From positions 286,328-350,327 of the forward strand of contig CM119265.1 of the NCBI GenBank assembly GCA_051294375.1: a stretch of DNA of 64,000 nucleotides, in the 5' to 3' direction. The DNA is from Paraspadella gotoi. Lineage: Eukaryota > Animalia > Chaetognatha. Shown piece by piece: positions 1 through 62,067 of the stretch; position 1 is the first letter of the stretch, and every line of letters begins with the position of its first letter. The notes beneath the pieces were generated by a model. It saw only the letters and a list, made by a program, of their open reading frames with translations, ran no database searches and was not told the DNA's origin. The position numbers and the translations under genes are program-made.

Positions 1-112
1 GTTTTTAAACTCACGTTATTTTCATCAGGCAGGTGACGAAGGACTGAGTTTGTAATTAGGTCGATCAGCGCTGAATTGTTCTTCACCGGATGATTCACTC
101 AGGTTGGCCGCA
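1..112 (-). repeat. F1 3' LTR, U3 end (partial)
   Basis: Follows PPT (113-121) and begins TGCGGCCAACC, similar to the F2/F5 LTR starts. Confidence 0.8.
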
Positions 113-435
113 TGCCCCCCTGTTATAATATATAGTAAAATATATAATAACAATTTGTTGTCGTCCATCGGTATGAGTGAAAGTATGATGTAAAAATTAA
201 ATAATGGGATAATATATACGAATATATACTAATATTGGTCTAATGACCGGTTTTAAACTTGCAAAATTTCACAAAATCCATCGCGAATTCCATAACAAAC
301 AAAAATCCATAAAATATCACTACAACAACAACAAATTTGTAAAACAAGGTTTCTAATATGAATACATAGTTGATTGGCAGTCGGGGCCCGGGAGGAAGAC
401 CGAGGATGCGAGGGAGAAGACGCTCCGACTGTCAA

Positions 436-3400
436 TCAGGCCGACAGGGGGGTTTTGTTTTCCTCTTTTGTCTTTTTGTTGTTGTTTTTGTCATTTTGTT
501 CGTTTTGTTCTTTTTGTCTCTTGAGCATCTCCTTTAGGACCACTGAATAGGTTGGGCGATTTGGACATCTGTTCGAAAAGTTTTCAGTTGTCGGCCTTGA
601 GAATCTTTCGATCGTTGGTCCGATATTCGCTTTTTGTCGATTGTTGTTGTTGTTGTCTTCGTTTTGATTTGACGATGATGAAGCGGTCTCACGTGGAAGC
701 TCGGGAGAATTAGAAGGATCGAGGAAAAAGCGTTGAGCCGGTGCAGGGGTGTTGGGAAGACACTGGGGGTGCTGGGGAGTGTCGGAGGAGTGAGGAGGAG
801 GAGGAGGAGGAGGAGGAGGAGGAGGCGAAGGCGACTTTTCGGGTGACGCAGCTCGCCGGTTTGATGATCTTGTGACTCTAGATGTCGGAGGTGGGATTCG
901 TGTCCTTATTCCGGGTCGACGACCTGCTGGACGTCGTTGGGGATGATCTGAGTCCAATTCCAACGCTTCGTCGCTTACCCAAGCCGGCTTAATTCGCGCG
1001 ATATTTATCGTTTCCCTTCCTGAGCTCGGGATTTCGATTGTGACGTTCAATCCATTTCGATTTATTACTCGATAGGGGCCTTCATATGGTGGAACTAGTG
1101 GCGGATTTACTCCAGCTCGCTTTACAAACACATATTGGGCGGTCTCGAGGTTGCTAGGAAGGTGTATAGTCGGTTGTTGATGGGCCGATGTCGGAGTTGG
1201 CTGTAAACGCGCGACCTCCAGCCTCAATTTCGCCAGTTGATTTTTTCTTTGGCGCTGGAGAGCCTCGTTGTCGTTTTGAGCGTCGTCGAGGATGCATCCT
1301 GGGATGGAGATGCCTTCCCCGAAGACCAGATCGGCGGCGGAGGCGCCGATGTCCTCCTTTATTGTCGTTCTAATGGCGAGGAGTGTCATTGGTAATTTCC
1401 AATACCAATTCTCTCGATTCTCCTTTGCCAAGGCAATTAGCGACTCTTTTAGTCGCCTGTGGAATCTCTCGACAAGGCCATTGGCCTGTGGATGATATGG
1501 AGTAGTCATCTGGTGTCGAATTCCCCATTGCTTGGTCAATTGTTTCCACAGAGATGAGTTAAATTGAGTTCCTCTGTCCGTTGTGATAATTGATGGCGTC
1601 CCGAAGGTACTAATCCAGTTGTGGCTCAGTGCATCGATTATCGTTGTTGTTAAAGTGTCTTGGATAGGGATGGCGGTCGGCCATCTCGAAAAGCGGTCGA
1701 CTATTGTGAGAAGGCTTGTATATCCGTTTGATCTGGGCATTTTGACCAGGTCGAGGTTTATGTGCTGAAAACGTCTCGGTGGCACTTTAAACTCTCCTAT
1801 CGCTGGGACTACATGACGGGTCACCTTGGCTCTTTGACATTCCAAGCAGTCTCTAGCCCACCTAGTGACATCCTGTCGCATACTCGTCCAAACGAATNNN
1901 NNNNNNNCGGCCTTGCGAGTGGCGTCGACGCCGGGGTGTCCGAGTCCATGAATGACGTCGAACACTTTTCGACGCCATGACGCCGGCACGAAGGGTCGAG
2001 CGGGTCCATTCGAAATGTCGACCAGTAAATCCTCGTTGCCTATCTTGATTTTTCTGAAGTTTAGCCCGGATCTCGCTTCTTCAGCGATTTTTTGATAATC
2101 TGGATCCAAGACTTGCTCCTTCGCCATTTTTTCAAAGTCAATTTCGAAACTTGTGAGAGACGCTATCATTGCCTGCGCATCTTCCAGTCGATTCGCTTTG
2201 ATCGATTTTTCCTCTCGATTTGTTGGAGGTGAAGTTGTTGGCGCTGTTGTCGGCGGAGTTGTGATCGATGTCGGCGTCTCTTCCGTTGAGATAGGTGGCG
2301 CTGGTGGCGCTACTGACGATATCGGTGCCGTCGTTTCTCCTGTCGTCGACGGCGATGACGACGACGACGGCGACGACGATAATGGCGACGAGAGTGGTGG
2401 CGATGACGTTGGTGATGGCGCTGTTGTTGTCGTTGTTGGCGTTGGCGACGTTGACGGCGACGACGATGACGACGAGGCCGTTGGTGACGCTGCTGAGGCG
2501 TTTGGTCGTGACAACGCGTCTGCTACGACGTTGGCCTTACCCTTGAGGTACCTAACGTCAGTTGTGTACTCGGATATGACTGATAACTGGTAAGATTGTC
2601 TTACTGTTTGTGGTTCGGACTTCTTTTTTATTGCCGTCACGAGACTTTGATGATCTGTGTACAAAGTAAACGATCGACCTTCTATCCAATGTCTGAAGTG
2701 TCGAACGGCCTTGAATGCTCCAAACAATTCCTTATCGAAAGGCGGCCAAAGTTTCTGGTTCTTAGCGAGTTTGGTTGAGTAAAAGGCCAACGGTTCCCAT
2801 CCTTTTGGTCCTCTCTGTTCCAGGACCGCTCCGACGGCTTGATCCGAGGCGTCGGTCGTGACGCACAGCTGCGCGCCGGTGCGTGGATGATGGAGTAGAG
2901 CGGCGTTGATCAGGCCTTCCTTTATCGCTTCGAATGCTCTTTCGCAGTCTTCCGTCCACTTCAACGCTTTAGGCTTGCCGCTGAGGGCTTCGTAGAGAGG
3001 CGCACATCGATGTGCGACCTTGGCGATGAAGCGGCGATAATAGTTAATCATGCCAAGGAAGCGTTGAAGTNNNNNNNNNNTCGTAGGCCGTGTAGTCTCG
3101 CGAAGTGTTTGAACTCTTTCTGGGAGTGGTCGAACGCCATTCTTATCCACTAAGAATCCCAGAAATTCGAGTGAAGATTGTCCTAGAAGGCATTTTTTCG
3201 TGTTGACGACTAAACCATTGGCGTCAAGGGCCTTGAAAACGTTTTCTAAGTCGCGATAATGCTCTTCTGGCGATGATGAAGCTACCAGTATATCATCTAA
3301 GTACACAAACGTATGAGGTATATCGCCTAGGATTTCATCCATAAGCCTCTGANNNNNNNNNNCGGCGTTTTTAAGGCCGAACGGACATCTGGGGAAAACG

Positions 3401-5368: not shown

Positions 5369-5607
5369 CGAGATCTTTTTGTTCCCGACTTGGCGATTTG
5401 TATGACTCCAGATGTATCGGGGTTCATGAAAAGAGGAGAAAGGGTGTGAGCAATTGGACGATTGCCTAATACCCGATTCCTTCGCCCAATCTTACCTTGG
5501 AAGAGATTGAGATGAGTTGGAACCCCTTCTTGAAGGTTGGTGGGTTCGACGTCGTCCTCACCAAGTGTGGCAAGGCCTCAGAGTGACTTGATCACGTGAC
5601 GAGGGTG

Positions 5608-6896: not shown

Positions 6897-7541
6897 TGTG
6901 GCTGGCTCCGAGATGCGTGACAACGTGACGGTGAGGCGTGACACACCGTGACTGGCTGCTAAAGGCGTGACTATATTGATGACAGTCTTAATTAGGCGCG
7001 CGATGCAGGGAAAAGCTTGTCACATGACTTCGATGACTTGTGTTTATCGATTCTTTGTTTTGAGACAAAAATTGAATTACTTGAAGTTGTTTTAAACATT
7101 GTTTGTTTATTTCAAGGTGATTTATTTATGTCGAATTGTTTTAAAATGATTTCTCAATGTCTTAATGTATTTATTACATTATAGAGATGAATAAAAATCG
7201 AGATTCATAATGTTAAGTTAGAACATTTGTATTCGAGATAAAATCAGACAGAAGGGATTTAAAACAGAGAAAACAAAAAGGAGGTAAACAATCAACTGTC
7301 AAATCATTTCTATGGCGGGAAGCCATCTTTTGTTTTAAGAAGATAATCATCTTGTTTTGGGAAAAACAAAAGGCATTCGAATTGAATTCAATCTTTAACT
7401 GAGAATCTAAGCAGTCGATTTTCAGGCCTACTGGTTGGTCTAGAGCTGTAGCTCGAAGCTTACCAGGCCTGAGCTCGATGGTTCGAGTCCCGGTGTGGAG
7501 GAATTATTTCTAATTAAGATTGATTCTCTCAGGTGGCCGCA
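6897..7541 (-). repeat. F2 5' LTR (~645 bp, TG...CA), followed by PBS at 6877-6894
   Basis: Reverse-complement match to 30718-31403. TGCGGCC start abuts telomeric repeat; ...GCCACA end is followed by CT-TGGTGAACCC. Confidence 0.92.
7425..7502 (+). ncRNA. tRNA-like Pol III cassette in F2 LTR (antisense to element)
   Basis: A-box-like TGGTCTAGAG and B-box GGTTCGAGTCC at tRNA-like spacing. Second copy at ~30760-30838 on minus strand. Confidence 0.65.
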
Positions 7542-7650
7542 ACCCTAACCCTAACCCTACCCTAACCCCCTAACCCTAACCCTAACCCCTAACCCCAAAC
7601 CCTAACCCTAACCCTAACCCTATAACCCTAACACTCACTCTACCTACCTC
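7542..7650. repeat. Telomeric repeat (CCCTAA)n
   Basis: Direct reading; lies between the F2 and F3 LTR starts. Confidence 0.95.
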
Positions 7651-8552: not shown

Positions 8553-8619
8553 ATTGGTGAACCGCGAACCGTCGACCGCTTTTCCAACCTTCTGAACAAG
8601 CCCATATCCCTAATTCACC

Positions 8620-20928: not shown

Positions 20929-21368
20929 AAGCTACGTTTTTAAAATTCCGTTTTGTGCGGCTGTTTGTTACATAAGTTCGCGGAAATCTTTTTTCTGTCA
21001 TTACAGCTTCAAACGAGGTTTCATCCGTAACAAAAAAACGTTTTTTTCGAGTAAAAAACGTTAACTTAATTTTCAGCTGGCAACGTGACCTTAAAATCGC
21101 AAGATATTAATTTTTTCGCTACATTTGTTTTTTTTAGTTTTTTTTATTATACTTTATAGGCCAATTTGTAAAAATTGTCAAAGAGAAAGAGTTCTACCGA
21201 TACGAAAAACAAGTTTTATTATCCGCCTACTAGTAAACCGCGAAACGACGTAACAAGCTTAATCTAAATCACAGCTATAAAACAACTGCCGCACCGAATT
21301 CTCCAATCTGCTGTCACAAATTGGAATCTCTCACCTTTCACTTCTTCTGTTGCATTTTCTCATCAGCC

Positions 21369-21710
21369 ATGTCTTTTATCAATTATGGACTCGGAGAATG
21401 GACGGTCTCCTCATTGCGCGTGCTCAACGACGAATTCAACTGCGACCACGCGCACATCTTCCTCGCTGATTGTCCATGGCGCCGAGATCCTCACTTCCGC
21501 TCGCTTTCGCTCCTACGATTCTGCCGCGCCACTGGAGACATCGGAGCGGGTCCGGTGGAGTGGGCTGCGGTGCTGGGCCTCGTCGTCTGCGGTGCCACGG
21601 GATACTTTCTCTTACCATACCTCTGCGCGCTGAGCGTTGCCTATGACAACTGGGAGATTTTTGCCGCCCTTCATTATAGGCGGGGGATTTTGTTAACGGG
21701 CGCGCGGTAG
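21369..21710 (+). CDS. Unidentified GC-rich ORF/exon (~113 aa, hydrophobic C-terminal half)
   Basis: TATAAAA at ~21276, GCCATG context, GC-rich versus flanks, stop abuts the satellite. No recognised family. Confidence 0.3.
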   Translation: MSFINYGLGEWTVSSLRVLNDEFNCDHAHIFLADCPWRRDPHFRSLSLLRFCRATGDIGAGPVEWAAVLGLVVCGATGYFLLPYLCALSVAYDNWEIFAALHYRRGILLTGAR

Positions 21711-24676: not shown

Positions 24677-25414
24677 TGAAGAGACAGTAAATTATTGTTA
24701 TGAGTTAGTGACAGAAGCCGTTCATATAATAAGCCAGTCCCTGAGCTCTTCGGATGAGGCTTGTAACACCGTGTTACAAGGCGGTTATAGCGCCCCGGCC
24801 CTCTTAGCTGTAACCTTGCCAAGACTGAACGACCGGGCTAGAACCCCGCGGACCTTTGGTTGGGGGAAGGTGAAATGTCTTGCCTCTGGCACTAATGGCC
24901 GCTGATGAAAGGTTGATGGAAGTATGTAGTCCACCATAATCAATCCCCCTCCCCGGTAGGGAGAAAGTTGCTGTTGCGGTCTTTCCCAGTGGAATTTTGT
25001 TGTTGTTGTTTGGTGGAAAAGTTTATGTCAACCAAAAGTTGAGGCATGTCGCCTGAATGTGTTGTGGGCGGAAAGTGCATCGCCAGGTTTGAGGGCAAAT
25101 GTCGCCTGAAAAAGTGTTGTTGGTTGGCTGTTGGTCGTTCGGAAGTCGGGCTAAAACGCAATGAAAGAGACAGTAATTATTGTTATGAAGTTTAGTGACA
25201 GAGAACGCGTTAAAAGTATAAGCAGTCACTGAGGCTTCGGATCAGGCTGTAATACCGTGTTACAGGGCGGGTTAACAAACCGCCCGTCCCTCTTAACTGT
25301 GCGCAGACGACACCGGGCTAGAAAGCCCGGACCTTTGGGTTGGGAGGCGAATGTTTTTTGTTTCCGGAACCAATGGCCGCTGAATGAACGGTTGGTTGGA
25401 TTGTAGTTCCACCA
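24677..25414. repeat. Pair of ~255 bp direct repeats (24677-24936, 25162-25414) around a ~225 bp spacer; TRIM-like
   Basis: Both copies read TGAA(A)GAGACAG...CCACCA. Confidence 0.6.
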
Positions 25415-29090: not shown

Positions 29091-31403
29091 NTCAATTTTT
29101 GTCTCAAAACAAAGAATCGATAAACAAAGTCATCGAAGTCATGTGACAAGCTTTTCCCTGCATCGCGCGCCTAATTAAGACTGTCATCAATATAGTCACG
29201 CCTTNNNNNNNNNNNNNNNNNNNNNNNNNNNNNNNNNNNNNNNNNNNNNNNNNNNNNNAGCCAGCCACACTTGGTGAACCCAACTTCGGACAAAGCCAAA
29301 CCTTCAAGAAGGGAACCAGCTCATCAAAATCTTCCCTGAGGTAAGATTGGGCGCAGAGATCGGGTTAAGCTTAATCCCAATCTTGCTGACACCTTCCCTT
29401 CCTTTTATCTACATAATACGGAGTCAACGACGCCGTCGACGACGAGAACGACGCCGGCGTCTCCTTCCCGACGCCACGACGCCGCCGGCAGATCAAAAGG
29501 ACGCCGCCAGCGACAAACTCGGGGACGACGAACGATTCNNNNNNNNNNGAATATCGGTCCCCGGTTGCATCCTCGACGACCCTCAGAACGACGACGCAGC
29601 GTTGCAACGCCAANNNNNNNNNNAATTAGCAAAACTCCGCTTAGAAGTGGCTAGACTTCAACCGACAGAAACTTCCGCCCATCAACAACCCGCCGTCCAC
29701 ATCCCCAACAACCTCGAATCGGCTCGATACGTTTTCATCAAGAGAGCGGGGGTTCATCCTCCACTCATTCCGCCATATGAAGGGCCCTACAGAGTAATCA
29801 GCAGAAACGGACTTAACATCACCGTCGAGATCCCAAGCACCGGGCGCGAAGTGGTCAACATCGCACGCGTCAAACCGGCTTGGTTGAGCGACGAGGTGTT
29901 GGAGGTCGACTCCGAGCATCCCCATCGACGCCCAGCGGGCCGCCAACCCGGCCTCAGGACGAGAGAAGCGACGACATCTACTCGAACAACGCGAGCAAGA
30001 AATGAACGCGCCGCTTCACCCGATGCTCCTCCTCCTCCTCCTCCTCCCACCACTTCCACTCCCAAAACAACCCCACCTCCCCACCTCCATCCCCCTTTGT
30101 CTTTTTTCTCTCCATCTTCAGGTTCTCCCGAGCCTCCACGCGAAGACGGTCCAAGGCAAAATCGACTCGAAGGCGAAAATGACAACAACAACAAAGAAGC
30201 GAGACGAGATGAGCCAACGTTCGAAAGGTTTTCAAAACCAACAAGCGACAACTTCTCCAGAAGATGTCCTCCTCGTCCGACTTATTCAGTTGTCTTGAAA
30301 GAGATGCTTCGACGTCAAAAAGAACAAAACGATAACAATAACAACAACAAAAAACAAAAGGCCCCCCTGCCGGCCTAACCAACAATCGGAGCTATCTTCT
30401 CCCGGCATCCTCGGATCTTCCTCCCGTCAGCTCCGATTGTCAGTCTTACAAATTACCCATTACTATTAATATTAGTAATTTTATTTTTCAATTTTAGTAG
30501 TTTTTCGAATTTTTGTGAATGTTATGGAATTTTGGAGTNNNNNNNNNNAATCGATAAATTTTACACATGTTTAAACCGGTCATTTAGACCACCATTTTAT
30601 ACTCGTTATATATATTTCAAATTATATATTGTTTTCAACACACTTTACAAACATACAGATGGACGACAACAATTTGTTTTAAATATTGTAAATACCCAAT
30701 ATTACAACAGGGGGGGATGCGGCCACCTGAGAGAATCAAATCTAATTAGAAATATATTCCTCCACACCGGCTCGAAACCATCGCAGCTCAGGCCTGGTAA
30801 GCTTTCGAGCTACAAGCTCTAGACCAACCAGTAGGGCCCTGAAAATCGACTGCTAGATTCTCAGTTTAAGATTGAATTCAAGTCGAATTGCCTTTTGTTT
30901 TTCCCAAACAACATGATTAATGCTTCTTCAAAACAAAAGGATGGCTTCCGCCATAGAAATGAGTTTGACAGTGTTGATTGTTACCTCCATTTTTGTCTTT
31001 CTCTGTTTTAAATCACTTCTGTCTGATTTTATCTCGAAGTACAAACTGTTCTTAACTTAACAATTGTATGAATCTCGATTTTTATTCATCTTCTATAATG
31101 TAATAAATACATTTAAGACATTGAGAAAGTCATTTTTAAAACAATTCGACATTAAATAAATCACCTTGAAATAAAACAAACAATGTTTTAAAACAAGACT
31201 TCAAGTAATTCAATTTTTGTCTCATTAAACAAAGAAGAATCGAGTAAACAAAGTTCATCGAAAGTCATTGTGACAAGCTTTCCCTGCATTCGCGCGCCTA
31301 ATAAGACTGTCATCAATTATAGTCACGGCCTTTAGCAGCCGAGTCACGGGCTTGTGTCACGCCTCACCGTTCACGGTTGTCCGCATCTCGCGAGCCAGCC
31401 ACA
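29091..31403 (+). mobile_element. F2 pieces: 5' LTR end, PBS and leader (29091-29538), N-gap, integrase tail to stop at 30378, PPT, 3' LTR 30718-31403
   Basis: Matches 6620-7075 in reverse complement. IN tail GPYRV...PTYSVVLKEM; PPT GGGGGGGA at 30710-30717. Confidence 0.9.
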
Positions 31404-34627: not shown

Positions 34628-35089
34628 TGTGCAGGACGGTCAGAGGGCAGGTTTAGCTTCAGATAACCTGGTCGATGGTCATGGCAACTGGAACGTCTTA
34701 GTTCTAAGATGATATCTCTTTTAGTTGATCACGTGATGAGATTCATCAGGGAAAGGTAAGGCGTTATAATTCGAATTGATTGGTAAAATTAATTGATTTT
34801 GTTTTTATATTCAGTTTTAAAATTTCTCATTGATTAATGTATTTGATTACAAGAAGAAGAATTAAATAACGAGATTTAGAGTAATAAAAACATGTTCTTG
34901 TTATCAAGATAAAAACCAGTTGAATCAGCTTCAGAAAACAATCAATAAAGTAAGGCAATCAAAAGAGAAAAACAAAAGTCATCATATAACGACATCTCTT
35001 GAGAGTTAGATGAGTTGAGAGAAAACAAAAGGTTTCGTTTTGTTTTAAAGTTTTAAATAACGAATTTAACAGCTTACGATTTTGTGCGT

Positions 35090-35165
35090 CGTCTGGATGG
35101 CTTAAGTCCGGTGACTGAATCGTCCCAGGCCCTTAGGTTCCAGGTTCGATTCACTGGGAGCGGAT
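35090..35165 (+). ncRNA. tRNA-like Pol III cassette in F5 LTR (antisense)
   Basis: TGGCTTAAGT A-box-like and CCAG-GTTCGATTC-ACTGG T-arm. Second copy at ~50897-50970. Confidence 0.65.
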
Positions 35166-35449
35166 AAGTTATTTCTTAATTGATCTAACTTCCTGAGGTG
35201 ACCGCACGCCCCCTTGTCGAAATATATACGGGTAATTAATAGTAATAATTCGAACATAAAACGTTGTCGTCCACAGAATGTTTGAAAGTATGATGAAAAA
35301 TAAATTATCAAAATTATATGGGTATAACAATTTAAAATAGATTACCGACTGACTCTTGACTTTAAAAATCATCTTTATCATCGCCAAAATTCAAAATTTC
35401 CAAAATTCAAAAATTTCAAAATTTACAAAAATCATTAATATGGGAATAA

Positions 35450-38400
35450 TTACAACATTTGGTCGGCAGTCGGAATCAACACCGAGGATGCTGATGGAGG
35501 AAGATGGACGAGGCGATTCCGACTGTCGGCGTGCGCGGCAACGGGGCTTTTGTTGTTTTTGTTGTTGTTATTATTGTCATTTTGTTGGCGTCGAAGCATC
35601 TCTTTCAAAACGATAGCGTAAGTCGGTCGCTCGTTCTTGTTATTGTTGTTGTAATTGTTTTCGTTTTGCTTCGACTGCTCTTTGTTGTTGTTGTTGTTGT
35701 TGTTCCCGCCTTCTAATTGTCTAAGTTGCTTCTTTCCGTTGCCAGCTTGTCGATTCGAAAAGTTTCCCGCCGTCGGCTTCGAAAATCGCCACGTTGGCTC
35801 GTTCTCGCTTGCTGAGTTGTTGTTGTTGTTCTTCTCGCCTTCTTTTTGATTTGCGATTTGAGTTGTCGAGCGGAGAACGCCGGGAGAAGACGAAGCTGGA
35901 AGGAAAAAATGAAAAGGGGATGTTTGTGGGTCGGGGGGAGGGAGGGGGTTCTGGGGTGAAGAGGGGAAGTTGGTAGGGGGAGGAGGAGGAGGAGGAGGAG
36001 GAGGAGAAAGAGGAGAAAGAGGAGGAGGAGACGGAGATCTCGCGTTTTCTCTCATCGATCTTGTTGTTCTTGACGTTGACGCTGGGATTCTTGTTCTCAC
36101 TCCGGGTTGACGTCCCTGGGGACGTCGTTGACGCTCCTCTGGCTCGCTCGTCTCCAGGCTATCCTCGCTAATGAAGGCCGGTTTGACGCGCGCGATGTTT
36201 ACGACTTCTCTGCCGGTACTTGGGATCTCTATCGTCATGTTAAGTCCATTTCTGTTGACTACTCGATATGGGCCCTCATATGGGGGCACGAGTGGAGGGT
36301 TGACGCCTGCCTTTTTGACGAAAACGAATTGAGCTGTTTCCAAGTCGGCGGGGATATGAGTCGCTGGTCGATGATGCGCGGAGGTTGAAGTGGGTTGAAG
36401 TCGAGCCACTTCAACGCGAAGGCTAGCGAGTTGATTACGCCTGTGACGCTGGAGATTGGCGTCGTCTGCTTGATTCTCTCCGAGGATGCTTCCTGGGATG
36501 GCGAGGCCTTCCCCGAAGACCAGGTCGGCGGCTGAGGCGCCGATGTCTTCCTTTACTGTCGTTCGAATGGCGAGTAGAGTCAAAGGAAGCTTCCAGTACC
36601 AGTTTTCCCTCTCGTTACGCGCCAATGCCATGATGGATTCTTTTAGCCTTCTATGGAACCTCTCTACAAGGCCGTTTGCCTGAGGATGGTAGGCAGTTGT
36701 CATGGAATGTTTTATTCCCCATTGACGAGTTAATTGGCGCCATAATGCTGAATTAAACTGCGTTCCTCTGTCTGTAGTGATGACTGCTGGGACTCCAAAG
36801 TTGCTAATCCACTCATGGCTTAGTGCATCGAGGATTGTTGTGGTGAGTGTATCTCGAAGTGGAATCGCCGTCGGCCATCTTGAAAAGCGGTCGACGACGG
36901 TCAACAGATGTTTATATCCGTTAGAGACTGGCATTTTGACCAGATCCAAATTCAGGTGCTGGAATCGACGTGGAGGTATCTTGAATTCTCCTATTTCTGG
37001 AATAGTGTGCCTCGTTACTTTTGAGCGTTGACAATCTGTACATTCTCTAGCCCACTTCGTTACGTCTTGTTTGATGTTAGTCCAAACGAATTTAGACGTT
37101 ATCGCTTTTTTCGTTGCTTCAATGCCAGGGTGGCCAAGACCATGTATTGTGTCGAAAATTTTTCTGCGCCACGCGGCTGGCACAAAAGGACGCGCTGGGC
37201 CATTCGAAATGTCTACTAATAGTTGTTCATCGCCTACTTGTATTTTCCTGAATGTAAGGCCCGATCTCGCTTCTTCAGATATTCTTTGATAGTCTGAGTC
37301 GAGTGCCTGCTCTCTGGCCATTTGTTCGAAGTTGATTTCGAATGTCGTAAGAGAGTTTATGACGGCCTGGGCGTCTTCGAGGCGATTTGGTTTTATTGGT
37401 CGGTCAGTCTTGTCCTCAAGTCGCTCGTTTTCCTCGCTTGTTGTTGTTGTCGCGTCATCTTTATTGTCGACGTCGACGTTAGCGATTTTGACTCTCGTTT
37501 GATCGTCTTCCGCTTGTCGCTGCGGCTGCTGCTGAGGCTGCTGCGTTGACGAGGCGGCTGTCGCTGATGTATTGGGACGAGAGAGGGCATCAGCGACAAC
37601 ATTCGCTTTTCCCTTGAGATAGCGAATGTCTGTTGTAAATTCCGCTATGACGGATAATTGATAGGCTTGTCGAGCTGTCTGAGGTTCTGACTTCTTTTTC
37701 AGCGCAGGGATGAGGCTTTGGTGGTCTGTGTAGATCGTAAAGGTCCTTCCCTCGATCCAGTGGCGGAAATGACGCACTGCTCGAAATGCTCCAAACAATT
37801 CGCGATCGAAGGGAGGCCACAGTCTCTGATTCTTGGCAAGCTTCGCGGAAAAAAACGCTAGAGGCTCCCACCCCTTGGGGCCTCTCTGCTCCAAAACTGC
37901 TCCAACTGCGTGGTCCGAAGCATCGGTCGTGATGCATAATTGTGCACCCGTACGTGGGTGATGAAGGAGGGCGGCCTGGATAAGACCCTCCTTGATTGAT
38001 TCAAAGGCCCTTTCACACTCGTCGGTCCAGTTGAGAGCTTTTGGTTTTCCGCTAAGCGCTTCGTAGAGAGGCGTACAGCGGTGGGCGACCTTTGGCACGA
38101 ATCTTCGATAATAGTTTATCATGCCAAGGAAGCGTTGCAGCTCCTTGACAGTCGTTGGTCGCGTTGTTTCACGTAGTGTCTGCACACGTTCTGGAAGAGG
38201 TCGAACTCCGTTTTTATCGACTAGAAATCCGAGGAATTCAAGCGATTCCTGTCCCAAGAGGCATTTTTTGGTATTTACTACCAGACCGTTGTTATCGAGA
38301 GTTTTGAAGACTCGCTCGAGATCTACTAGATGCTCTTCGGGAGACGATGAAGCGACCAAGATGTCGTCCAGATAGACGAAGGTATGGGGGATATCCCCCA

Positions 38401-39385
38401 AGATCTCGTCCATTAGGCGCTGGAAGTCCTGCCCCGCGTTTTTAAGCCCAAAAGGGCAGCGGGGAAAGACGTAGAGGCCAAACGGGGTAATCACCGCCGT
38501 TTTCTTGACGTCATCCGGGTTGACGGGTATTTGGTGATACCCTTTGAGAAGATCAATCTTCGAGAAGATTGTCTTCCCCTCCAACTGGGCGTTGAAGTCG
38601 GTGAGTAACTTGACGGGGTATCTATCGTCGATGGTTTGCGCGTTTAGTCTCCTATAATCGCCGCAACATCTCCATCCGCCGTCCGGCTTGGCGACGACAT
38701 GGAGAGGCGACGACCATTCAGATTTTCCGCGTTTGGCGATGCCTAGTGAAACCATCTTCTCGAGCTCCTTCTTGGCCACCGCCAACTTCTCAGGGTCCAG
38801 CCGGCGGGCGCGAGACTGGCAGGGACGCCCTTCCGTTGGAATGGAATGCGTCACGCCGTGCTTGGGTTCCTTAAGTTGAAACGTGGGTGTTGAGAGAGAA
38901 GGAAAGCTTTCGAGGAGTTTATAGAATTTTTCTCCCTTTCTATCGACAAAGTTAACGTGAGTGGTCTGTTCTGATGCAGTTGAGGCGGCTATAGTCGAAT
39001 AGTCCTGTAAATCCATTAGTAAGCCGTCTCGATGGTTAGGCGCTAGAAAATTCTCCGCCAGAAAGTCGGCGCCTAATATATGCTGTGTTACTTCAGCGAC
39101 GACGAAATCATAATTGAATTGGCGTTTACCTAACGTGACGGTTTTATTTATTGTTCCATAACAATTAATGGGAGAGCCATTTGCCGCTTGCAATTTTATT
39201 TCAGGATCTGGGCCTTGCTCACGTTGTTGTTTAGTTGGAGGTACGATAGAAAGGAGGGCCCCGCCGTCCACCAGCCACTTCGCCCGGCTCTTTGAGTCGC
39301 GGATGTAGAGTAGATCGCTTGTCGCTGGTGAACGTGATGATTGGGGGACGGCGTTCACCGCCGGCGCCCCCCTCTCCCGTTTCCC
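35450..39385 (-). CDS. pol: F5 Pol polyprotein (PR-RT-RH-IN); true stop may lie near 35530
   Basis: 1329-aa open frame containing all catalytic motifs; entered via GGGAAAC at 39379-39385. Confidence 0.95.
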   Translation of the reverse strand, partial: GKRERGAPAVNAVPQSSRSPATSDLLYIRDSKSRAKWLVDGGALLSIVPPTKQQREQGPDPEIKLQAANGSPINCYGTINKTVTLGKRQFNYDFVVAEVTQHILGADFLAENFLAPNHRDGLLMDLQDYSTIAASTASEQTTHVNFVDRKGEKFYKLLESFPSLSTPTFQLKEPKHGVTHSIPTEGRPCQSRARRLDPEKLAVAKKELEKMVSLGIAKRGKSEWSSPLHVVAKPDGGWRCCGDYRRLNAQTIDDRYPVKLLTDFNAQLEGKTIFSKIDLLKGYHQIPVNPDDVKKTAVITPFGLYVFPRCPFGLKNAGQDFQRLMDEILGDIPHTFVYLDDILVASSSPEEHLVDLERVFKTLDNNGLVVNTKKCLLGQESLEFLGFLVDKNGVRPLPERVQTLRETTRPTTVKELQRFLGMINYYRRFVPKVAHRCTPLYEALSGKPKALNWTDECERAFESIKEGLIQAALLHHPRTGAQLCITTDASDHAVGAVLEQRGPKGWEPLAFFSAKLAKNQRLWPPFDRELFGAFRAVRHFRHWIEGRTFTIYTDHQSLIPALKKKSEPQTARQAYQLSVIAEFTTDIRYLKGKANVVADALSRPNTSATAASSTQQPQQQPQRQAEDDQTRVKIANVDVDNKDDATTTTSEENERLEDKTDRPIKPNRLEDAQAVINSLTTFEINFEQMAREQALDSDYQRISEEARSGLTFRKIQVGDEQLLVDISNGPARPFVPAAWRRKIFDTIHGLGHPGIEATKKAITSKFVWTNIKQDVTKWARECTDCQRSKVTRHTIPEIGEFKIPPRRFQHLNLDLVKMPVSNGYKHLLTVVDRFSRWPTAIPLRDTLTTTILDALSHEWISNFGVPAVITTDRGTQFNSALWRQLTRQWGIKHSMTTAYHPQANGLVERFHRRLKESIMALARNERENWYWKLPLTLLAIRTTVKEDIGASAADLVFGEGLAIPGSILGENQADDANLQRHRRNQLASLRVEVARLQPTSTSAHHRPATHIPADLETAQFVFVKKAGVNPPLVPPYEGPYRVVNRNGLNMTIEIPSTGREVVNIARVKPAFISEDSLETSEPEERQRRPQGRQPGVRTRIPASTSRTTRSMRENARSPSPPPLSPLSPPPPPPPPPPTNFPSSPQNPLPPPDPQTSPFHFFLPASSSPGVLRSTTQIANQKEGEKNNNNNSASENEPTWRFSKPTAGNFSNRQAGNGKKQLRQLEGGNNNNNNNKEQSKQNENNYNNNNKNERPTYAIVLKEMLRRQQNDNNNNNKNNKSPVAAHADSRNRLVHLPPSASSVLIPTADQML

Positions 39386-40431
39386 TCTTGCTGCTTTTTG
39401 GTCTCGTTGAACTTGGCGCAGCCAGGTTCGCACGACCATGCTGCGTCACCAAACTTCACGTGCTTGTTGCAGAGGGTCATGAGCTTGCTCTTGGGCTTTG
39501 CCTTTGACTGGTTGAACTTTCTCTTCCCTTTGTCGTTTTTCTTAAACGCGCCGAGTGAATAGATGGCATCGTCGTCGTCTGACGTCGATGATTGACGGCT
39601 GCGTTGATTGTTGTCGACGCTGTTGATGAGTGAGGTCGCTTGGCGGGTCTTGAGGTTACCCTCGCTGTCGAAATGGCGGTCGGCTAATTGACAGAGGTCG
39701 CTCGCTGACAAATCGTCCGCCTTATCCTCTACTTGGCGCCTGATCTCGGTTGGCAGTTCCCTCATGATCTTCTCTTTCCTTAAATCATCGATGGTAACTG
39801 TTTTGGTTTTTTCCTCCAACCTGGCGAGCATCTTTGATGGTTTGAGGCCTTCAGCGTCGAGAGAATCGAGGAGATGAGCTGCCTGTTGCCTCCTCGTTAG
39901 GCCATATTCTTTTCTCAGATAAGTGAGAAATTGACTCCATGTTAGTTCGGTGGCCTCACCGAACAGATATTGGTTTATCTTTGGATCAGTGTTGACGCCA
40001 ATCTTCGATTCAAGATGAGCAAACTTACTCTTAGGTGCAGATATTCCAGCGCGCGTGTAGGCGGCTTCCACTCGCCTTATCCATATCTCGATGTTTGAAA
40101 CGTCGAAGTCTGGTAAGTCCGGTTTTCTATTTGAAGCTCTTTCTAGAGCTCTGGTCGCCGCAGCTAAAGCAGCGCGCAACTCCTCGTTTTCGCCGCGCAG
40201 ATCTCTGTCGTCGGCGTCGTTTGTCGCCATGTCGGCGTTGGCGAAGTTGGCTGGGTCGATTTGCTGGAAGTTGAAAGTTTGCGCTGGATCGATGACGTTA
40301 GGAGAAGTAGATCTGGAGCCTCGTCCTCTACCGAATCCCGGAGGTATTTGGAGGGTCGCTGGCTCTGCTCGTTGCTCGTCGACGTCTCTCTGGGCTGAGC
40401 GGAGTCGATATCTTGCTTCTGATTCGCTCAT
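39355..40431 (-). CDS. gag: F5 Gag (CHCC)
   Basis: Starts MSESEARYRLRS; knuckle CNKH...CEPGC. Confidence 0.92.
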   Translation of the reverse strand: MSESEARYRLRSAQRDVDEQRAEPATLQIPPGFGRGRGSRSTSPNVIDPAQTFNFQQIDPANFANADMATNDADDRDLRGENEELRAALAAATRALERASNRKPDLPDFDVSNIEIWIRRVEAAYTRAGISAPKSKFAHLESKIGVNTDPKINQYLFGEATELTWSQFLTYLRKEYGLTRRQQAAHLLDSLDAEGLKPSKMLARLEEKTKTVTIDDLRKEKIMRELPTEIRRQVEDKADDLSASDLCQLADRHFDSEGNLKTRQATSLINSVDNNQRSRQSSTSDDDDAIYSLGAFKKNDKGKRKFNQSKAKPKSKLMTLCNKHVKFGDAAWSCEPGCAKFNETKKQQEGNGRGGRRR

Positions 40432-41699
40432 TGACGTTGTCGAGGTGATCCAAAGGCGTAAGGGATATGGGACCAAAAGAAAATTGTGTTAGCGAGCGGA
40501 TGGCTTCGCTTAAATTTTCAATTTCATCCGATCTTACCTCGAGGGTGATTGGATTCCTCCTGGGTCCCGTTCCTTAGCTTGAAGGTTGGCTGAGACTCGT
40601 CGTCGGAGTCACCAAGTGTGGCAGGACGTCAGAGGGCAGGTTAGCTTCAGATAACCAGTAAAGGCATATTATGCTATACGTACAATATTACAATTTTTTT
40701 GTTTGCTGCAGACGTTCTCACAGTCGTGACTGGCGCATCCTGATGCCTCCAACGCGACGGTCTCGTTTGGCCGGAGAGAAGTAGTTCCGACGCGAAAAGA
40801 GGACGATTTCCCTCGCCGGAATGGAAGCGCACGAGTCCTGCAGTGTTGAATGTCGATTCACGATTGGCTGAGTTGGCAAAGTTTGGCAAATAAAAGCTGA
40901 CTTTGATAAAATTTAGATAACGATAACAATTCATCAAATCATCGTTATTTATCATAAATTACATGACACATAACGTATTTAGCATAATATTCGTCACAAT
41001 TATATATCTCGCAAACTTCACAAGAAAATAATCCCTTATCTTTCAAACGACAAAATGCAAAATAGATTAAAGCAAATATTTCATTTCATTAACTGCGCCT
41101 CTTAAACGGCTTGCCTGGCTCCGCGGCGGCCGTGAAAGGCTGATCCAGACAAGCAGCGCGCAACCAACCAAATTAGGCGAAACCGGGGCGCGCCACCGAC
41201 GACGTCGGCGGTGAAGGAAAATCGGCGCCGAAACATTTTCGATCGTGAATTTATTTCGGTCTCAGAGTCAAAATCTTTCGAATATGATCATGTAAAACCG
41301 AAGTTTAAATTTCAATTTATCCTTTAAACAATGAAACATTCAGTTATTGTTAACCGATTTTACAAATATTGTCCTCATTTCTTTTGCAGCTTTTTTACCT
41401 AAGAAAACTATTCTTCGACTCTGGAATTTGTCATCTCATTTTGAGACTTTATAACAAAATAATAAAAACAGTCCGCAAGTTCGTAATGTTCATATGACGT
41501 TTGGCCGATCTTTACGTCTTTGTCAACATATGAAAATTAAAAGGAATAACAAAACTAATATTAGCAGGATAACAACAAACCAACGTTGAGACAAAAAATA
41601 TATATCATATTTTAACGATTGCCCTAGCGAAATTCGATGCTCAAAACAGAAAAAGTTGTAATATTGTTTTCATTGTTTTTTGTATTGTTTTTTGTTGTG

Positions 41700-49369: not shown

Positions 49370-49546
49370 AGAAAACAAAGTTTGGTTTGTTTGTAAACAA
49401 CGATTTTTATTCACAATTGGGACATGTTCGGCTTTTTGCCTTTAAGGCCTTCATACAGCGCTTGATGAAGGCTTAAAGCAGAGCCGAAACATGTCCAACA
49501 TTGTGAATAAATAATCGTTGTTTACAACAAACAAACTTTGTTTTCC
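49370..49546. mobile_element. Palindromic relic of a Penelope-like pseudo-LTR with minimal hammerhead motifs
   Basis: ~175 bp inverted repeat; TGATGA-AGGC..GCC-GAAACATGTC followed by AATAAA. Confidence 0.6.
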
Positions 49547-50472: not shown

Positions 50473-51011
50473 TGATCGATGGTCATGCAACTGGAACGTC
50501 TAGTTCTAAGATGATATCTCTTTTAGTTGATCACGTGATGAGATTCATAGCAGGGAAGGTAAGGCGTTTATAATTCGATTTGATTGGTAAAATTAATTGA
50601 TTTTGTTTTTATCGAATTCGAGTTTTAAAATGTTCTCATTGATTAATGTATTTGATTACATTTAGAAGAAGAATTAAAAACGAGATTTAGAGTAATAAAA
50701 ACATGTTCTTTGATCAAGATTAAAAACCAGTCTGAATCAGCTTCAGAAAACAATCAATAAAGTAAGCAATCAAAAGAGAAAAACAAAAGTCATCTATAAC
50801 GACATCTCTTGAGAGTTAGATGAGTTGAGAGAAAACAAAAGGTTTCGTTTTGTTTTAAAGTTTTAAATAACGATTTAACAGCTTAGATTTTGTGGTCGTC
50901 TGGATGGCTTAAGTCGGTGACTGAATCGTCCCAGGCCCTTAGGTTCCAGGTTCGATCCCTGGGAGCGGATAAGTTATTTCTTAATTGATCTAACTTCCTG
51001 AGGTGACCGCA
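50473..51011 (-). repeat. F5 LTR (partial), start abutting telomeric array
   Basis: Near-identical to 34670-35206. Confidence 0.9.
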
Positions 51012-53218: not shown

Positions 53219-53256
<38 letters not shown>

Positions 53257-54922: not shown

Positions 54923-55303
54923 GGGGCGATTTATTTCTAAATAAATAAGTCGGACTGAACGCTATATCCCCCCATGATTAATTATATAGTCTTATAAATT
55001 CATCAAAAATAATGAAAAATAAAATAGTATGATGTCGGCCACTGTGTAAAGTATGTTGCTTTAAAATATGTACAAAATTATAGGCGTAATAAGGGCGAAA
55101 ATTAAAATTGACTTGATCGATCGATTGACTTTGACGGCGAAAAATTTCATATTCAAAATTCGAAAATCCAAAATTACAAAATTACAAAACCAAAATTGTT
55201 AAATATGTACTACTAATGGGAATAAGGGGTTGTTAACTGTCGGAGTCAATGCCGCGGATGCTGATGGAGTGAAGATGGATAAAGACTGGCTCCGACAGAT
55301 TAA

Positions 55304-58300
55304 CTATGATTTAAGGGAATTTTGTTTTTCTTTATCGTCGACGTTCTCGTTGTTGTTGTTGTTTTGTTCTTGTTGGCGAAGGATTAGTTCTTTCAAAACC
55401 ACTGCATAAGTTGGTTTGTTAAAGTTTTTGTTAGAGAAATCGTCGACTGAAGGCCTCGAGAATCTACACGTTGGCTCAATTCCCTTTTTCTCGAGTTGCT
55501 TGTTGTTGTTGTTGATTTTCTCTTTTTGCTTCGGTGATGAAGGCGTCTCACGTGGAGGCGCGGAGAATGGGGAAGCTGGAAGCAAAAAAGACGGGGAAGG
55601 GGGGAGTGGGTCGGGGGGAAGGTGGGGAAGATTTGAGGGGTCGGAGAAGTTGATCGGGGAAGGTGGAGGAGGAGGAGGAGGAGGAGAAAGAGGAGGAGGA
55701 GGAGGCGGAGACGCCGCGCGTTGGTTTCTTGATCGCGTTTGTCGATCCGTTGGCGCTGGTTGCCTCGTTCTGGCTCCTGGTGGTCGACCTGGTCTTCTCT
55801 CTTGGAGCAACCCTGGGTCGTCGATCTCCTGCTCGTCGTCGCTGATCCAAGCGGGTTTGATTCGTGCCACGTTTACCGTCTCCCTGCCGATACTCGGAAT
55901 GTCAACAGTTAGATTCAAACCATTTCTGTGAACAACACGGAATGGGCCTTCGTACGGAGGCATGAGCGGGGGTTGAACGCCTGCTCTTTGAATGAACACA
56001 TACTTAGCTGAGTTTAGATTCGCTGGGAGATGGATCGCGGGTTTTCGGTGGGCGGATGTTGGCTGGGATTGTAGCCGGGCTACTTCGATTCGAAGTTTTG
56101 AGAGGTGTTTTCTTCGCTGTTGATTCGTGATAGTGTCGTTGGCTTGGCAGTCGCTCAAGAGAGTTCCGGGGACGCCAATGCCCTCGCCGAAGACCAACTC
56201 TGCCGCTGAAGCTCCTACATCCTCTTTCACAGTTGTTCGAATCGCAAGTAAGGTCAAAGGCAGCTGCCAAAACCATTTTTCTCTTTCTTCTTTCGCCAGC
56301 GCTATTAGAGATTCTTTTAACCGCCGGTGAAATCTCTCCACCAGCCCATTCGCCTGCGGGTGGTACGATGTCGTTGTTTGGTGCTTAATGCCCCAACTTT
56401 TCGTTAACTGTTTCCACAAGGTCGATGTGAATTGGCTACCACGATCCGTTGTTATTACCGCTGGAGTTCCGAAAACGCTAATCCAGTTCAAGCTTAAAGC
56501 ATCCAGAATTGTCGGAGTCGTGGTATCGTGGATTGGGATGGCCGTTGGCCATCGAGAGAATCTATCCACAATTGTCAACAGGTGTGAATACCCGTTTGAT
56601 CTCGGCATTTTTACTAAGTCCAAGTTTATGTGCTGGAAGCGCTTAGCCGGGACTTTAAATTCGCCAATTTCAGGGATGACATGACGAGTGACTTTTGCCT
56701 TTTGACATTCGATGCAGTCGCGGGCCCACTTTGATACATCCTGTCGCATGCTTGTCCAAACGAATTTGGAGGCCATAGCTTTGCGCGTTGCCTCCACTCC
56801 CGGATGGCCTAAGCCATGGATGATGTCGAATACTCGGCGCCGCCATGCTGCTGGCACAAATGGGCGTGCCGGGCCGTTCGAAACGTCGGCCAAAAGGTCA
56901 TGTTCGCCTACGCGGATTTTTCGAAAGTTTAATCCCGATCTCGCGTCATCTGAGATTTTTTGAAAATCGCTGTCGAGTGATTGATCGATTGCCATTTGTT
57001 CGAAGTCAATATCGTAACTTGTAAGAGACGAAATGACGGCGTTTGCATCTTCTAAACGGCTGGGTTTGATGCCTAGTTCCTGTTTTTCGCCGTCTCGCTT
57101 TTCCTCGCTCGCGGTAGATGCCTTTTGGCAATGCTCGATGGCTGGGACTCGCGATTCTTCTTCCCCTGGCGTCGAAATCGAGTTCGCGATCGAGGTAGGT
57201 GTCTTCTGGCTGGTTTCGATGGCTGTTCTTCCAGTCTGGCTCGTTTTTGCGTCGCTAGGTGATGCTGTTGGAGTATTGTTTGGCCGGGACAAGGCATCTG
57301 CTACCACATTTGCCTTTCCCTTCAAATATCGAATGTCCGTGGTAAATTCTGCTATAACTGATAGCTGATAGGACTGTCGACATGTTTGTGGCTCTGATTT
57401 TTTCTTGATGGCGGTAACGAGGCTCTGGTGATCGGTATAAAGCGTAAATGCCCGGCCTTCCACCCAGTGGCGGAAATGCCGGACTGCGCGAAAGGCTCCG
57501 TATAATTCCCTATCGAAGGGCGGCCACAGCTTTTGGTTTTTGGCTAGTTTCGCGGAGAAGAACGCCAAGGGTTCCCAACCCTTGGGTCCTCTTTGTTCGA
57601 GCACTGCTCCTACAGCATGATCGGAGGCGTCTGTCGTTATACAGAGCTGAGCTCCGGTCCTCGGGTGATGAAGTAGCGCCGCGGAGATTAATCCCTCTTT
57701 GATGGCGTTGAAGGCTCTTTCACAGTCCTCCGTCCATGTTAGCGACTTGGGCTTACCGCTCAGGGCTTCGTACAGTGGCGAGCATCGATGAGCGACCTTG
57801 GGAATAAATCTTCGATAGTAGTTGATCATTCCCAAGAATCGCTGAAGTTCTTTGATCGATGTTGGGCGCGTGGTCTCCTTCAGAGTTCGAACTCGCTCTG
57901 GTAACGGCCTCACTCCGTTTTTGTCGACCAAAAAGCCCAAGAACTCCAGCGAGTCCTGGCCGAGCAGACATTTCTTGGTGTTTACCACCAAACCGTTCTC
58001 GTCTAACGCTTTGAAAACGCGTTGTAGATCCTCCATATGTTCTTGTGGTGATGATGACGCGACAAGAATGTCGTCTAAGTAGACGAATGTATGGGGTATG
58101 TCTCCCAAGATCTGGTCCATAAGGCGCTGAAAATCTTGGCCAGCGTTCTTGAGTCCAAATGGACATCGAGGGAAGACATAGAGCCCAAATGGTGTTATTA
58201 CCGCGGTTTTTTTTATATCATCCGGGTTCACTGGGATTTGATGATATCCCTTGAGTAAGTCTATCTTGGAGAAAATTGTTTTCCCCTCAAGCTGTGAGTT

Positions 58301-61139: not shown

Positions 61140-61208
61140 NNNNNNNNNNNNNNNNNNNNNNNNNGTAGCTCCGGTCGGTCGGTCTTGTTCGTCGAAGTGC
61201 TCACCATG

Positions 61209-61902
61209 TGTGGCAGGTTGACTGAGTCTAGCCACAGCGTGACGAAGGGACTGGCAACTGAACGTCAGAGTCCTAAGACGTTGATGAGGATCATTACTAT
61301 GATCAGTAGCAGCGTTGCAGGGAAGGTTTGGCGTTGTAGAATTAATCTTTTAATTGATTATTTATTATCGATTACTTTCACAGATTAAAAAGTCGATTTA
61401 TTTCAGAGACTTGTTTCATCGATGTTGAATTGATTTATTTCATTCACTTCATTTAGTTTAATTCATCTTTCTTATAATGTACTTATTACATTTAGATGAT
61501 TAAATAAAAACAAGGTTTTGTTGAGTGAGGTAAAAGTATTATTTAATTCAAGATGATCGATTTTTAATATATCGAATTAAACAATTTAAGATCTTTGATT
61601 TTATCTTGACTGAGGTATCAAGACTGAAATTATTCAGTTAAAGATTCAAAAGGTAAACAAAATCTGTAACAAATATAAAAGGTTTTAACAGAGAGCCCTC
61701 TGTTGAAAACAGATTAATTCTAAGTAAAACAAAAGATTCGAATCTGTTTTAAAGTTATAAATAGGAGAATTCGAATTTGATTTTTCAGTTGTCTGGGTAG
61801 CCTCTGGCTGTAATTTCCAGACAGCGAGCGCTCAGGATCCAGGATCGAATCCTGGCGAGGGGCGATTTATTTCTAAATAAATAAGTCGGACTGAACGCTA
61901 TA
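61209..61902 (-). repeat. F6 5' LTR (TA...CA) with PBS at 61190-61206
   Basis: PBS TGGTGAGCACTTCGAC; start abuts the telomeric array. Confidence 0.9.
61791..61866 (+). ncRNA. tRNA-like Pol III cassette in F6 LTR (antisense)
   Basis: TAGCCTCTGG A-box-like; T-arm CCAGG-ATCGAAT-CCTGG. Confidence 0.6.
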
Positions 61903-62067
61903 ACCCTAACCCTAACCCTAAACCCTATAACCCTAACCCTAACCCTCTAACCCTAACCCTAACCCTAACTAACCCTATAACCCTAACCCTAACCCTAACC
62001 CCTAACCCCCTAACCCTAACCCTAACCCTAACCCTAACCCTAACCCTAACCCTAAACCCTAAACCAC
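61903..62067. repeat. Telomeric repeat (CCCTAA)n
   Basis: Direct reading. Confidence 0.95.

Follow-up and report, generated by a model that had tools for sequence, protein, structure and literature searches.

A predicted antisense RNA polymerase III transcript across the 3' ends of CsRn1-type Gypsy retrotransposons

We analysed a 64,000-nucleotide (nt) stretch of Paraspadella gotoi contig CM119265.1 (the window), eukaryotic DNA with several TTAGGG arrays and many Ty3/Gypsy long terminal repeat (LTR) retrotransposons, whose families we label F1, F2 and so on. At the end of pol and in the 3' untranslated region (UTR) of F1, F2, F5 and F6 there are a conserved block and a hairpin followed by a T-run, and in F2 and F5 tRNA-like promoter boxes in the adjoining 3' LTR point the same way, against the genes (Table 1). 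It is probable (roughly 70%) that RNA polymerase III (Pol III) makes an antisense RNA of 460-475 nt from the 3' LTR, a transcription that we infer from the DNA. This reading is the best one because the boxes have the spacing of a tRNA gene, TTTT has been lost on one strand only and a terminal stem lies just before the T-run.

The antisense unit

All four hairpins of the first-pass annotation are present, with stems of 16-18 bp, loops of 35-40 nt and a total length of 66-73 nt. In the antisense reading, 60 of the 64 cells of the 16-pair stem are paired across the four families, and shifting the partner strand lowers the pairing to 22-44%. The stems had been described as different in sequence. 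This is true of the nine pairs (out of 16) with changes on both sides, but not of the upper core (UCGG/CCGA), whose five pairs are invariant. No shuffle out of 500 reached as high a covariation count; note that the count comes from four related sequences and that the shuffle result is not a probability. The loop motif CCG(A/C)GGATGC that was said to be shared is matched exactly at all four hairpins and at one site in pol. Both halves of the conserved block are also where they had been reported in all four families: TGTCG(T/G)CCA has 5 matches against 0.71 expected, 4 of them at the expected place, and AAAGT(A/G)TG(A/T)TG has 4 against 0.18, all at the expected place. The hairpin was further said to fold best on the antisense strand, which holds for absolute energy, 4.3-7.5 kcal/mol below that of the mRNA strand in 4/4 families; the consensus fold of the hairpins is -26.1 antisense and -16.8 sense. 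An independent contig contains the F2 hairpin in identical form. The earlier placement of the hairpin right after the pol stop has to be corrected for F5, where the frame reads through it.

The tRNA-like cassette that had been claimed for the 3' LTR is found in F2 and F5. For F6 we had to take it from another LTR copy (61209-61903), because the local LTR is broken at 54923, where it is joined to the LTR of another family. The distance from A to B box in six cassettes is 45, 45, 45, 43, 44 and 39 nt; the cassettes of F2, F5 and the F6 family have the 45 nt that are the tRNA value. All cassettes are antisense, directed away from the primer-binding site (PBS) and the genes, and their flanks differ between families. 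A T-arm-like stem with 5/5 pairs occurs in three of the six, for example in the F5-family copy at 50946-50962. Since their acceptor stems have only 2-4 of 7 pairs and ARAGORN makes 0 calls, we regard the cassettes as promoter relics and not as tRNAs. Two upstream blocks are common to the LTRs of F2, F5, the F6 family and F7 and could serve a promoter in either direction. In F2, F5 and the F6 family the features of a Pol III type 2 gene come together, namely tRNA-spaced boxes, no terminator inside the LTR, no internal T4 and a T-run at the end. Cassettes also occur in the LTRs of the hairpin-less families F3, F4 and F8. Among these, the distant F3 and F8 have antisense A/B-box units of 85-90 nt with a closing stem and a T5 end (7785-7870, -; 62180-62275, -), vault- or VA-like in build.

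The antisense path from cassette to hairpin had been described as free of TTTT in F2, F5 and F6 and as having one in F1, and our counts (0, 0, 0 and 1) agree; the F6 path was assembled from two LTR copies, and a 10-N gap in the F2 path is unseen. Altogether the 1815 nt of path have 1 TTTT, compared with 23 in the 2082 nt of similarly composed upstream LTR (binomial P 6e-6), and TTT is extended to TTTT in 1/32 runs on the path and in 23/71 runs upstream (Fisher P 8e-4); the families are related, so that these P values overstate the effect. The same strand shows no depletion of AAAA runs (42 vs 40), and the 3' UTRs of the hairpin-less F3 and F4 have 4 and 6 TTTT. The loss is strand-specific and stops at the hairpin. 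Compared with dinucleotide shuffles of the same sequences the depletion is modest (P 0.035 for F5, 0.067 for F2 and 0.17 for F6), and F1, counted from base 1, gives P 0.91. The first TTTT follows the hairpin after 16-19 nt in 4/4 families, as the reported distance of about 15-20 nt had it. An independent contig agrees with positions 35093-35354 save for one letter and two gaps.

Helices beyond the hairpin

The predicted RNA is more than its terminal hairpin: in the folding models the structure spans about 340 nt and includes the polypurine tract (PPT). We newly find here a predicted terminal stem, P1, in which the C-run of the PPT complement is paired to a G-run that lies after the hairpin and before the T-run, so that the last ~340 nt are closed. 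Pair probabilities above 0.8 are reached by 11 pairs of P1 in F1, 11 in F2 and 5 in F5. In F5 the P1 pairs stack with a further helix, P3, between the conserved block and the same 3' strand (12/13 pairs, 11 of them above 0.8). P3 can also form in F1 and F2 (8/9 pairs), where it costs 8 and 2 kcal/mol. Two alternative pairings, P1 and P3, are thus predicted to share one 3' strand, and the pairing of P3 would explain the first half of the conserved block as a helix strand.

The best partner of the PPT complement was the site after the hairpin in F1 (-21.0 vs -13.5) and in F2 (-20.0 vs -15.2, with 1 kb searched), and narrowly so in F5 (-19.9 vs -19.7). The helix ends 0-2 nt before TTTT in 4/4 families. 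Only 6 of 175 G-runs in three elements have a TTTT within 2 nt, and 3 of these 6 are the sites in question. In pol this C-run is preserved although the encoded amino acids differ (TPL, APL, SPV and NSL), and its proline is coded by CCC in 3/3 cases, compared with 59/306 across pol. The consensus fold of F1, F2 and F5 is -46.4 antisense and -27.9 sense; lower antisense consensus folds arise partly because G-rich strands fold lower. The AU-rich middle, about 170 nt, is poorly structured and diverges fast.

Related sequences

A covariance model built from the four hairpins recovers its 4 training sites in the window and no others, and it has no match below E 0.18 in the 100 loci scanned out of 122 related ones (80 from metagenomes and 42 from genomes, mostly at 40-47% identity, six at 55-59%). 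Out of these six, five end inside pol and only one, L006 from another organism (59%), reaches the LTR. L006 is without long 3' UTR and without hairpin; its LTR has two antisense tRNA-like cassettes, each followed by TTTT inside the LTR, about 95 nt (2310-2400, -) and about 265 nt (1845-2112, -) to the TTTT. The longer unit ends in a large hairpin and TTTT, with a fold z-score of +0.9 and no match in Rfam. When 81 loci were scanned for the boxes, 9 of the matches were antisense and 7 sense, which is noise level; the scan is weak and recovered only 3 of the window cassettes. Additional families that have the conserved block are seen in contigs matching the window. A homolog search with the pol tail found none, and neither did a search of viral contigs for related loci, in which 5 pattern matches were taken as chance.

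The host elements and their surroundings

F1, F2, F5 and F6 are, as judged by their sequence motifs, CsRn1-type Gypsy elements. The CsRn1 lineage of Ty3/Gypsy is described, in the parts of the publications available to us, by a tRNA-Trp PBS, a CHCC motif in Gag, a GPY motif and a -1 overlap of the frames (PMC2582038, PMC3630058). The F5 PBS corresponds to the CsRn1 tRNA-Trp pattern, as given in the available part of PMC2582038, with one change, and the F5 Gag has C-X2-H-X9-C-X3-C close to its end. Two more CsRn1 features are present, a GPY motif 3' of the integrase and the domain order PR-RT-RH-IN (protease, reverse transcriptase, RNase H and integrase). The host elements are about 6 kb long with intact gag and pol, and their closest database relatives have 58-62% identity. 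Integrase identity among the four families is 65-76%, and a tree of 15 rows groups them together, though the support is modest (80/76); the relatives in this tree are unnamed elements, with no named CsRn1 element among the rows, and F3, F4 and F8 were omitted from it owing to broken frames. The latter are far more distant, at 29-35% identity in most tblastn pieces. A 4-bp target site duplication is a further CsRn1 feature; no element in the window has both flanks intact, and the flanks are repeats. Note that the non-coding DNA of the window carries indel errors, with 23 gaps in the comparison with a 946-nt contig.

Eleven LTR ends (7545, 7652, 14541, 14920, 31403, 34630, 51011, 53880, 60483, 61903 and 62060) adjoin TTAGGG/CCCTAA arrays. 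They belong to several Gypsy families and to both orientations, and some of the junctions are degenerate. Possibly these Gypsy elements are targeted to telomere repeats; assembly joins are an alternative cause of the junctions. Our literature search found no paper on Gypsy LTR retrotransposons inserting in telomere repeats and none on CsRn1 together with telomeric repeats. In 3/3 cases (7542-7650, 51011-54000, 61903-62060) the terminator-less promoter of a 5' or solo LTR would read into CCCTAA repeats, and the cassette copy at 50950 is followed by TTTT only after 3319 nt. Judging from these positions, the terminator-less cassettes could give a long C-rich telomeric RNA.

The 5' LTRs of F5 and F1 are shortened to about 40-45 nt beside the PBS (40617-40659; 5567-5610) and are either R-U5-only ends or assembly breaks. 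The F5 PBS and four others (5545-5563, 6877-6894, 8555-8575, 40597-40614 and 61190-61206) are alike in their first 6 nt and then differ, and a CGAC-like motif lies further along in most of the five. Primer annealing at these sites may be bulged or bipartite. In the F2 copy the leader is joined to the integrase end across N gaps (29278-30378 with 6631-6897 and 20772-20927) and the middle of the family sits elsewhere (17752-21064), so the scaffold is pieced together. A 13-bp stem with a loop of 43-44 nt, antisense, stands at the same gag position in two distant families (39778-39847, +; 63565-63633, -). Outside the elements there are a satellite with units of about 35 nt (21700-25700) and a 175-nt inverted repeat of 85% (49371-49545), possibly a MITE or a long hairpin, with a weak MIR2646 match far below the cut-off.

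Table 1. Positions in the window of the F5 unit, its counterparts in other families and the F5 element.
Feature	Position	Strand	Remarks
Predicted antisense Pol III transcript, F5	35091..35551	+	~460 nt; start inferred 7 nt before A box, end at first TTTT
Conserved upstream blocks	35022..35083	+	A-rich near -60; GATTTT-like near -10
A-box-like motif, F5	35098..35111	+	in U3 of 3' LTR
B-box-like motif, F5	35143..35152	+	45 nt from A box, within 5-bp T-arm-like stem
PPT complement, F5	35208..35219	+	5' strand of terminal helix P1
AU-rich hairpin P2	35215..35256	+	between C-run and block; predicted in F1, F2, F5
Conserved block, F5	35262..35295	+	first half pairs with 35531-35543 (P3), second half without clear partner
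Hairpin, F5	35462..35530	+	16 bp, 37-nt purine-rich loop, motif 35482-35505
3' strand of P3 and P1, F5	35531..35547	+	G-run at end
First TTTT, F5	35548..35551	+	predicted terminator; further T-runs after
Homologous unit, F2	30356..30834	-	~475 nt, one 10-N gap, hairpin 30378-30443
Homologous region, F1	24..456	+	P1, block, hairpin 372-437; promoter degenerate; TTTT at 251-254
Homologous region, F6	54923..55323	+	block, hairpin 55232-55304, weak P1; LTR broken at 54923
Cassette and U3 end, F6-family LTR copy	61791..61903	+	LTR copy 61209-61903
Second F5-family cassette	50899..51011	+	reads out of LTR into CCCTAA repeats
Second F2-family cassette	7426..7542	+	in 5' LTR; reads out into CCCTAA repeats
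pol, F5 (PR-RT-RH-IN)	35450..39445	-	1331 codons stop to stop; last 27 codons overlap hairpin
gag, F5	39355..40488	-	CHCC motif; overlaps pol in -1 frame
PBS, F5, tRNA-Trp type	40597..40614	-	pattern from available part of PMC2582038
3' LTR, F5	34630..35206	-	U5 end adjoins TTAGGG repeats

Discussion

The features are real, conserved and more elaborate than first reported, as seen in four families of one genome. The element-encoded, structured antisense Pol III RNA of the first-pass annotation stands as the best and a probable reading of them, with a structure acting in minus-strand cDNA as its main rival.

A number of results weigh against a Pol III transcript. The whole unit is in one piece only in F2 and F5; for F1 the window includes 115 nt of LTR without a clear A/B cassette, and there is a TTTT at 18-21. 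Poly(A) signals in sense orientation are likewise few on the path (1 vs 16), which leaves some room for a cause on the sense strand, and the T-run sits in an A-rich coding tail where one would soon be expected anyway. As to the folds, in F2, F5 and F6 it is the mRNA strand that has the better hairpin z-score, so that the claim of a best antisense fold does not extend to this measure; taken alone, the F5 hairpin does not differ significantly from shuffles of itself (z -0.98), and the F5 sense fold is lower than the antisense one (-75.0 vs -72.8). The mRNA strand also makes 8-9 of the P1 pairs in F1 and F2. In F6, P1 has only 4 pairs at a probability of 0.5, and the site is outside the 6 best partners. 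The covariation of P1 is thin, with 1 double change in three families (181/500 shuffles as high) and 3 in four families (12/500).

The preference for G-U over A-C mismatches on the antisense strand, which had been put forward as a strand signal, exists as a count: the hairpin wobbles are 7 G-U and 0 A-C cells (about 6 independent), P1 adds 5 G-U and 3 A-C cells, the A-C at helix ends, and both together with the helix ends included have 12 G-U and 3 A-C cells. Four-fold sites of three pol genes show that antisense G-U is the likelier neutral outcome (0.61). Allowing for this mutation bias, P is 0.06 for the 6 independent hairpin events and 0.12 for all cells, which also counts against the transcript and makes the bias only suggestive. 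Moreover, it would be the same for an antisense RNA and for minus-strand cDNA; these two are told apart only by the promoter, by the loss of TTTT and by where the terminator lies.

The minus-strand DNA has the same polarity as the antisense RNA. One could suppose, and we find it unlikely though worth serious attention, that the helices act in cis in reverse transcription, that is, that the pairing of G-run and PPT complement takes place in the minus-strand DNA or else in the genomic RNA, while the cassette is a separate feature. The folding would then time or release the plus-strand primer, and the hairpin core would aid primer handling or strand transfer. Such a role fits with the use of the PPT itself in P1, with the F1 region, which folds as DNA with P1 and hairpin (z -2.4), and with a structure kept in F1 without clear promoter. 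The PBS sites agree in only 6 nt and, according to the available part of PMC11381356, a second part of the Ty3 PBS lies close to the 3' end of that element; the F6 upper stem equals the F5 PBS region over 10 nt. A match of 10 is reached by 0.7% of 3402 random 19-mers, or about 0.03 for four PBS, post hoc. But this match joins different families, and the match of hairpin and PBS of the same family is only 4-6 nt; nor would an action in cis account for a TTTT loss exactly from cassette to hairpin or for a helix that ends 0-2 nt before the T-run. It is a little less probable again that the RNA is made but restrains the family it comes from as an antisense brake. In that case its open AU-rich middle would seed pairing to the genomic RNA at the 3' UTR, PPT and U3, which would block plus-strand priming or feed small-RNA silencing. 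The complementarity to the PPT region is full by construction, the poorly structured and fast-diverging ~170 nt would give family specificity, and Ty1 antisense RNAs enter particles and lower RT activity (available part of PMC7175516). On the other hand, pure antisense action needs no loop and block motifs that are constant across families, and P1 hides the PPT complement.

Two further explanations concern the parts of the unit. tRNA genes have barrier activity, and the A/B boxes might form a chromatin barrier of this type that shields the LTR promoter from telomeric silencing, with the RNA as by-product. The occurrence of cassettes in the hairpin-less F3, F4 and F8, the 11 LTR ends next to telomeric repeats and the position of the F2, F5 and F6 cassettes at the outer edge of U3 all suit a barrier, but it gives no reason for a TTTT-free path or for the conserved fold of the hairpin clade, and we consider it improbable. 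Very improbable in our opinion is a tRNA-linked or foamy-virus-like small-RNA precursor whose leader is cut off and whose hairpin is diced to a microRNA (miRNA). The tRNA-like head, the small hairpin and the T-run do resemble the Pol III miRNA precursor units of bovine leukaemia virus (BLV) and foamy viruses; against this there are the missing acceptor stem and ARAGORN call, the short stem with a large loop, a conservation that lies in the loop and not in the outer stem, and the 300 nt between head and hairpin.

Several known kinds of gene or product were also tried and rejected. A TMER-type tRNA-linked miRNA precursor has a cloverleaf acceptor stem for RNase Z and a long stem with small loop and conserved arm; the six cassettes lack this acceptor stem (2-4/7 pairs, ARAGORN 0), and the hairpins are of another build (16-18 bp, 35-40 nt loop). 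A tRNA was rejected on the same missing acceptor stem and ARAGORN result. A box C/D small nucleolar RNA should have box C and box D in all copies, and we find box C only in F5 (1/4), with an Rfam score of 19.9 bits at a cut-off of 50. In 4/4 regions there is none of the 6 template rotations complementary to TTAGGG that a telomerase RNA could use. We discarded an inserted SINE (short interspersed element), since the unit extends across the LTR edge and the PPT. As for antisense peptides, AUGs in the loop do open hydrophobic frames of 40-70 codons, but these frames are not the same from family to family; they are what a reversed N/K-rich tail is expected to give, and they are cut by the T-run.

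If the antisense Pol III transcript is real, the A/B boxes of the LTR would drive Pol III through the PPT and the 3' UTR as far as the T-run in the pol end, giving a closed-stem RNA of 460-475 nt that would be stabilised by the stem and a U-tail. Its unpaired motifs may be read by one and the same protein in all families, a common ligand being suggested because these motifs are constant while the AU-rich middle drifts. Most simply this would be a host silencing or double-stranded-RNA-sensing factor; tied up by the RNA, it would let elements in telomeric chromatin be expressed. Alternatively, the ligand might be the zinc knuckle of the element's own Gag, bound by the GGAG-rich loop. By analogy with the virus-associated (VA) RNA of adenovirus, we tentatively prefer an RNA that binds a host protein in trans as the best mechanism, at somewhat less than even odds. 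The available part of PMC5943564 provides rice miR820 as a precedent of RNA-based anti-silencing by a transposon. The fullest version, that a telomere-inserting Gypsy lineage encodes its own long Pol III RNA of an undescribed family, with a partner-switching PPT helix and a role in counter-defence or as cofactor, and that its 5' and solo LTRs transcribe telomeric repeats, seems doubtful to us.

Nine of 11 sequencing runs contain the stretch, all in the form of contigs, from which strand, ends and level cannot be read. The contigs of one of them, labelled X9 and guessed to be RNA, come from one study and give a mixed picture, and they were not used as evidence. A 260-nt contig over 35093-35354 has a depth of 12 and the other listed F5-family contigs 2.6-4, and a DNA contig runs through. 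The F2 contigs 30272-30438 and 30433-30770 have depths of 4 and 2.9 (LTR contig 2.7), and one F2 contig extends 84 nt beyond the T-run.

LTR retrotransposons are normally taken to carry only gag, pol and cis signals. If they also carry a conserved, structured Pol III RNA gene that runs backwards over U3, PPT and 3' UTR, both the kind of cargo and the RNA family would be new, and the RNA might have a part in the persistence of the elements in silenced telomeric chromatin. Should the helices act in cis instead, plus-strand priming would be under a new control, exerted by a long-range fold-back onto the PPT.

Comparison with known systems

The unit has no match in Rfam, and a literature search, mostly without subscription papers and Repbase reports, found no description of such a unit. 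The CsRn1 descriptions, in the parts available (PMC2582038, PMC3630058), have no antisense Pol III unit and no telomere-repeat insertion, and in the available part of PMC12801592 there is no mention of telomere, Pol III, antisense or tRNA.

Pol III promoters derived from small RNA genes are known from the LTRs of Helenus, Ajax and Cassandra (TRIMp3), where conservation is centred on the promoter boxes without a functional tRNA fold, and "not a few" Repbase LTRs contain part of a tRNA (PMC10886601, in the part available). The tRNA-derived boxes inside the LTR are a likeness to TRIMp3 such as Helenus. TRIMp3 elements are non-autonomous and 311-1263 bp long, whereas the elements here are autonomous; and the Cassandra promoter makes the genomic RNA from 5' LTR to 3' LTR, whereas here the boxes point against the genes and a separate RNA is predicted. 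From the available parts of PMC7693620 and PMC13192155 we know the Pol III miRNA cassettes of foamy viruses and BLV, with type 2 A and B boxes and a T-tract; the foamy cassette sits in U3 and aids replication. These, too, are retroelement-encoded Pol III units with type 2 boxes and T-run, as predicted here. They are ~150 nt long or single-hairpin miRNA precursors, while our unit is about three times as long as the foamy cassette, crosses the LTR edge and the PPT into pol and has a large conserved loop and not a Dicer-type stem. The unit is thus a member of neither the TRIMp3 nor the foamy/BLV cassette class. Ty1 antisense RNAs, which associate with particles and start in gag, and whose copy control was later assigned to a truncated Gag, are in the available part of PMC7175516 not described as Pol III products or as structured, unlike our unit.

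VA RNA is of Pol III origin and has A and B boxes and a terminal stem with a U-tail. It has no sequence or Rfam match to the unit and is a model of how the latter might work only, since our unit is longer, antisense to a retrotransposon and of predicted function. VA RNA acts as a decoy for Dicer and blocks PKR (PMC6468734, in the part available), and if the counter-defence reading is true, the antisense RNA predicted here would be its retrotransposon counterpart.

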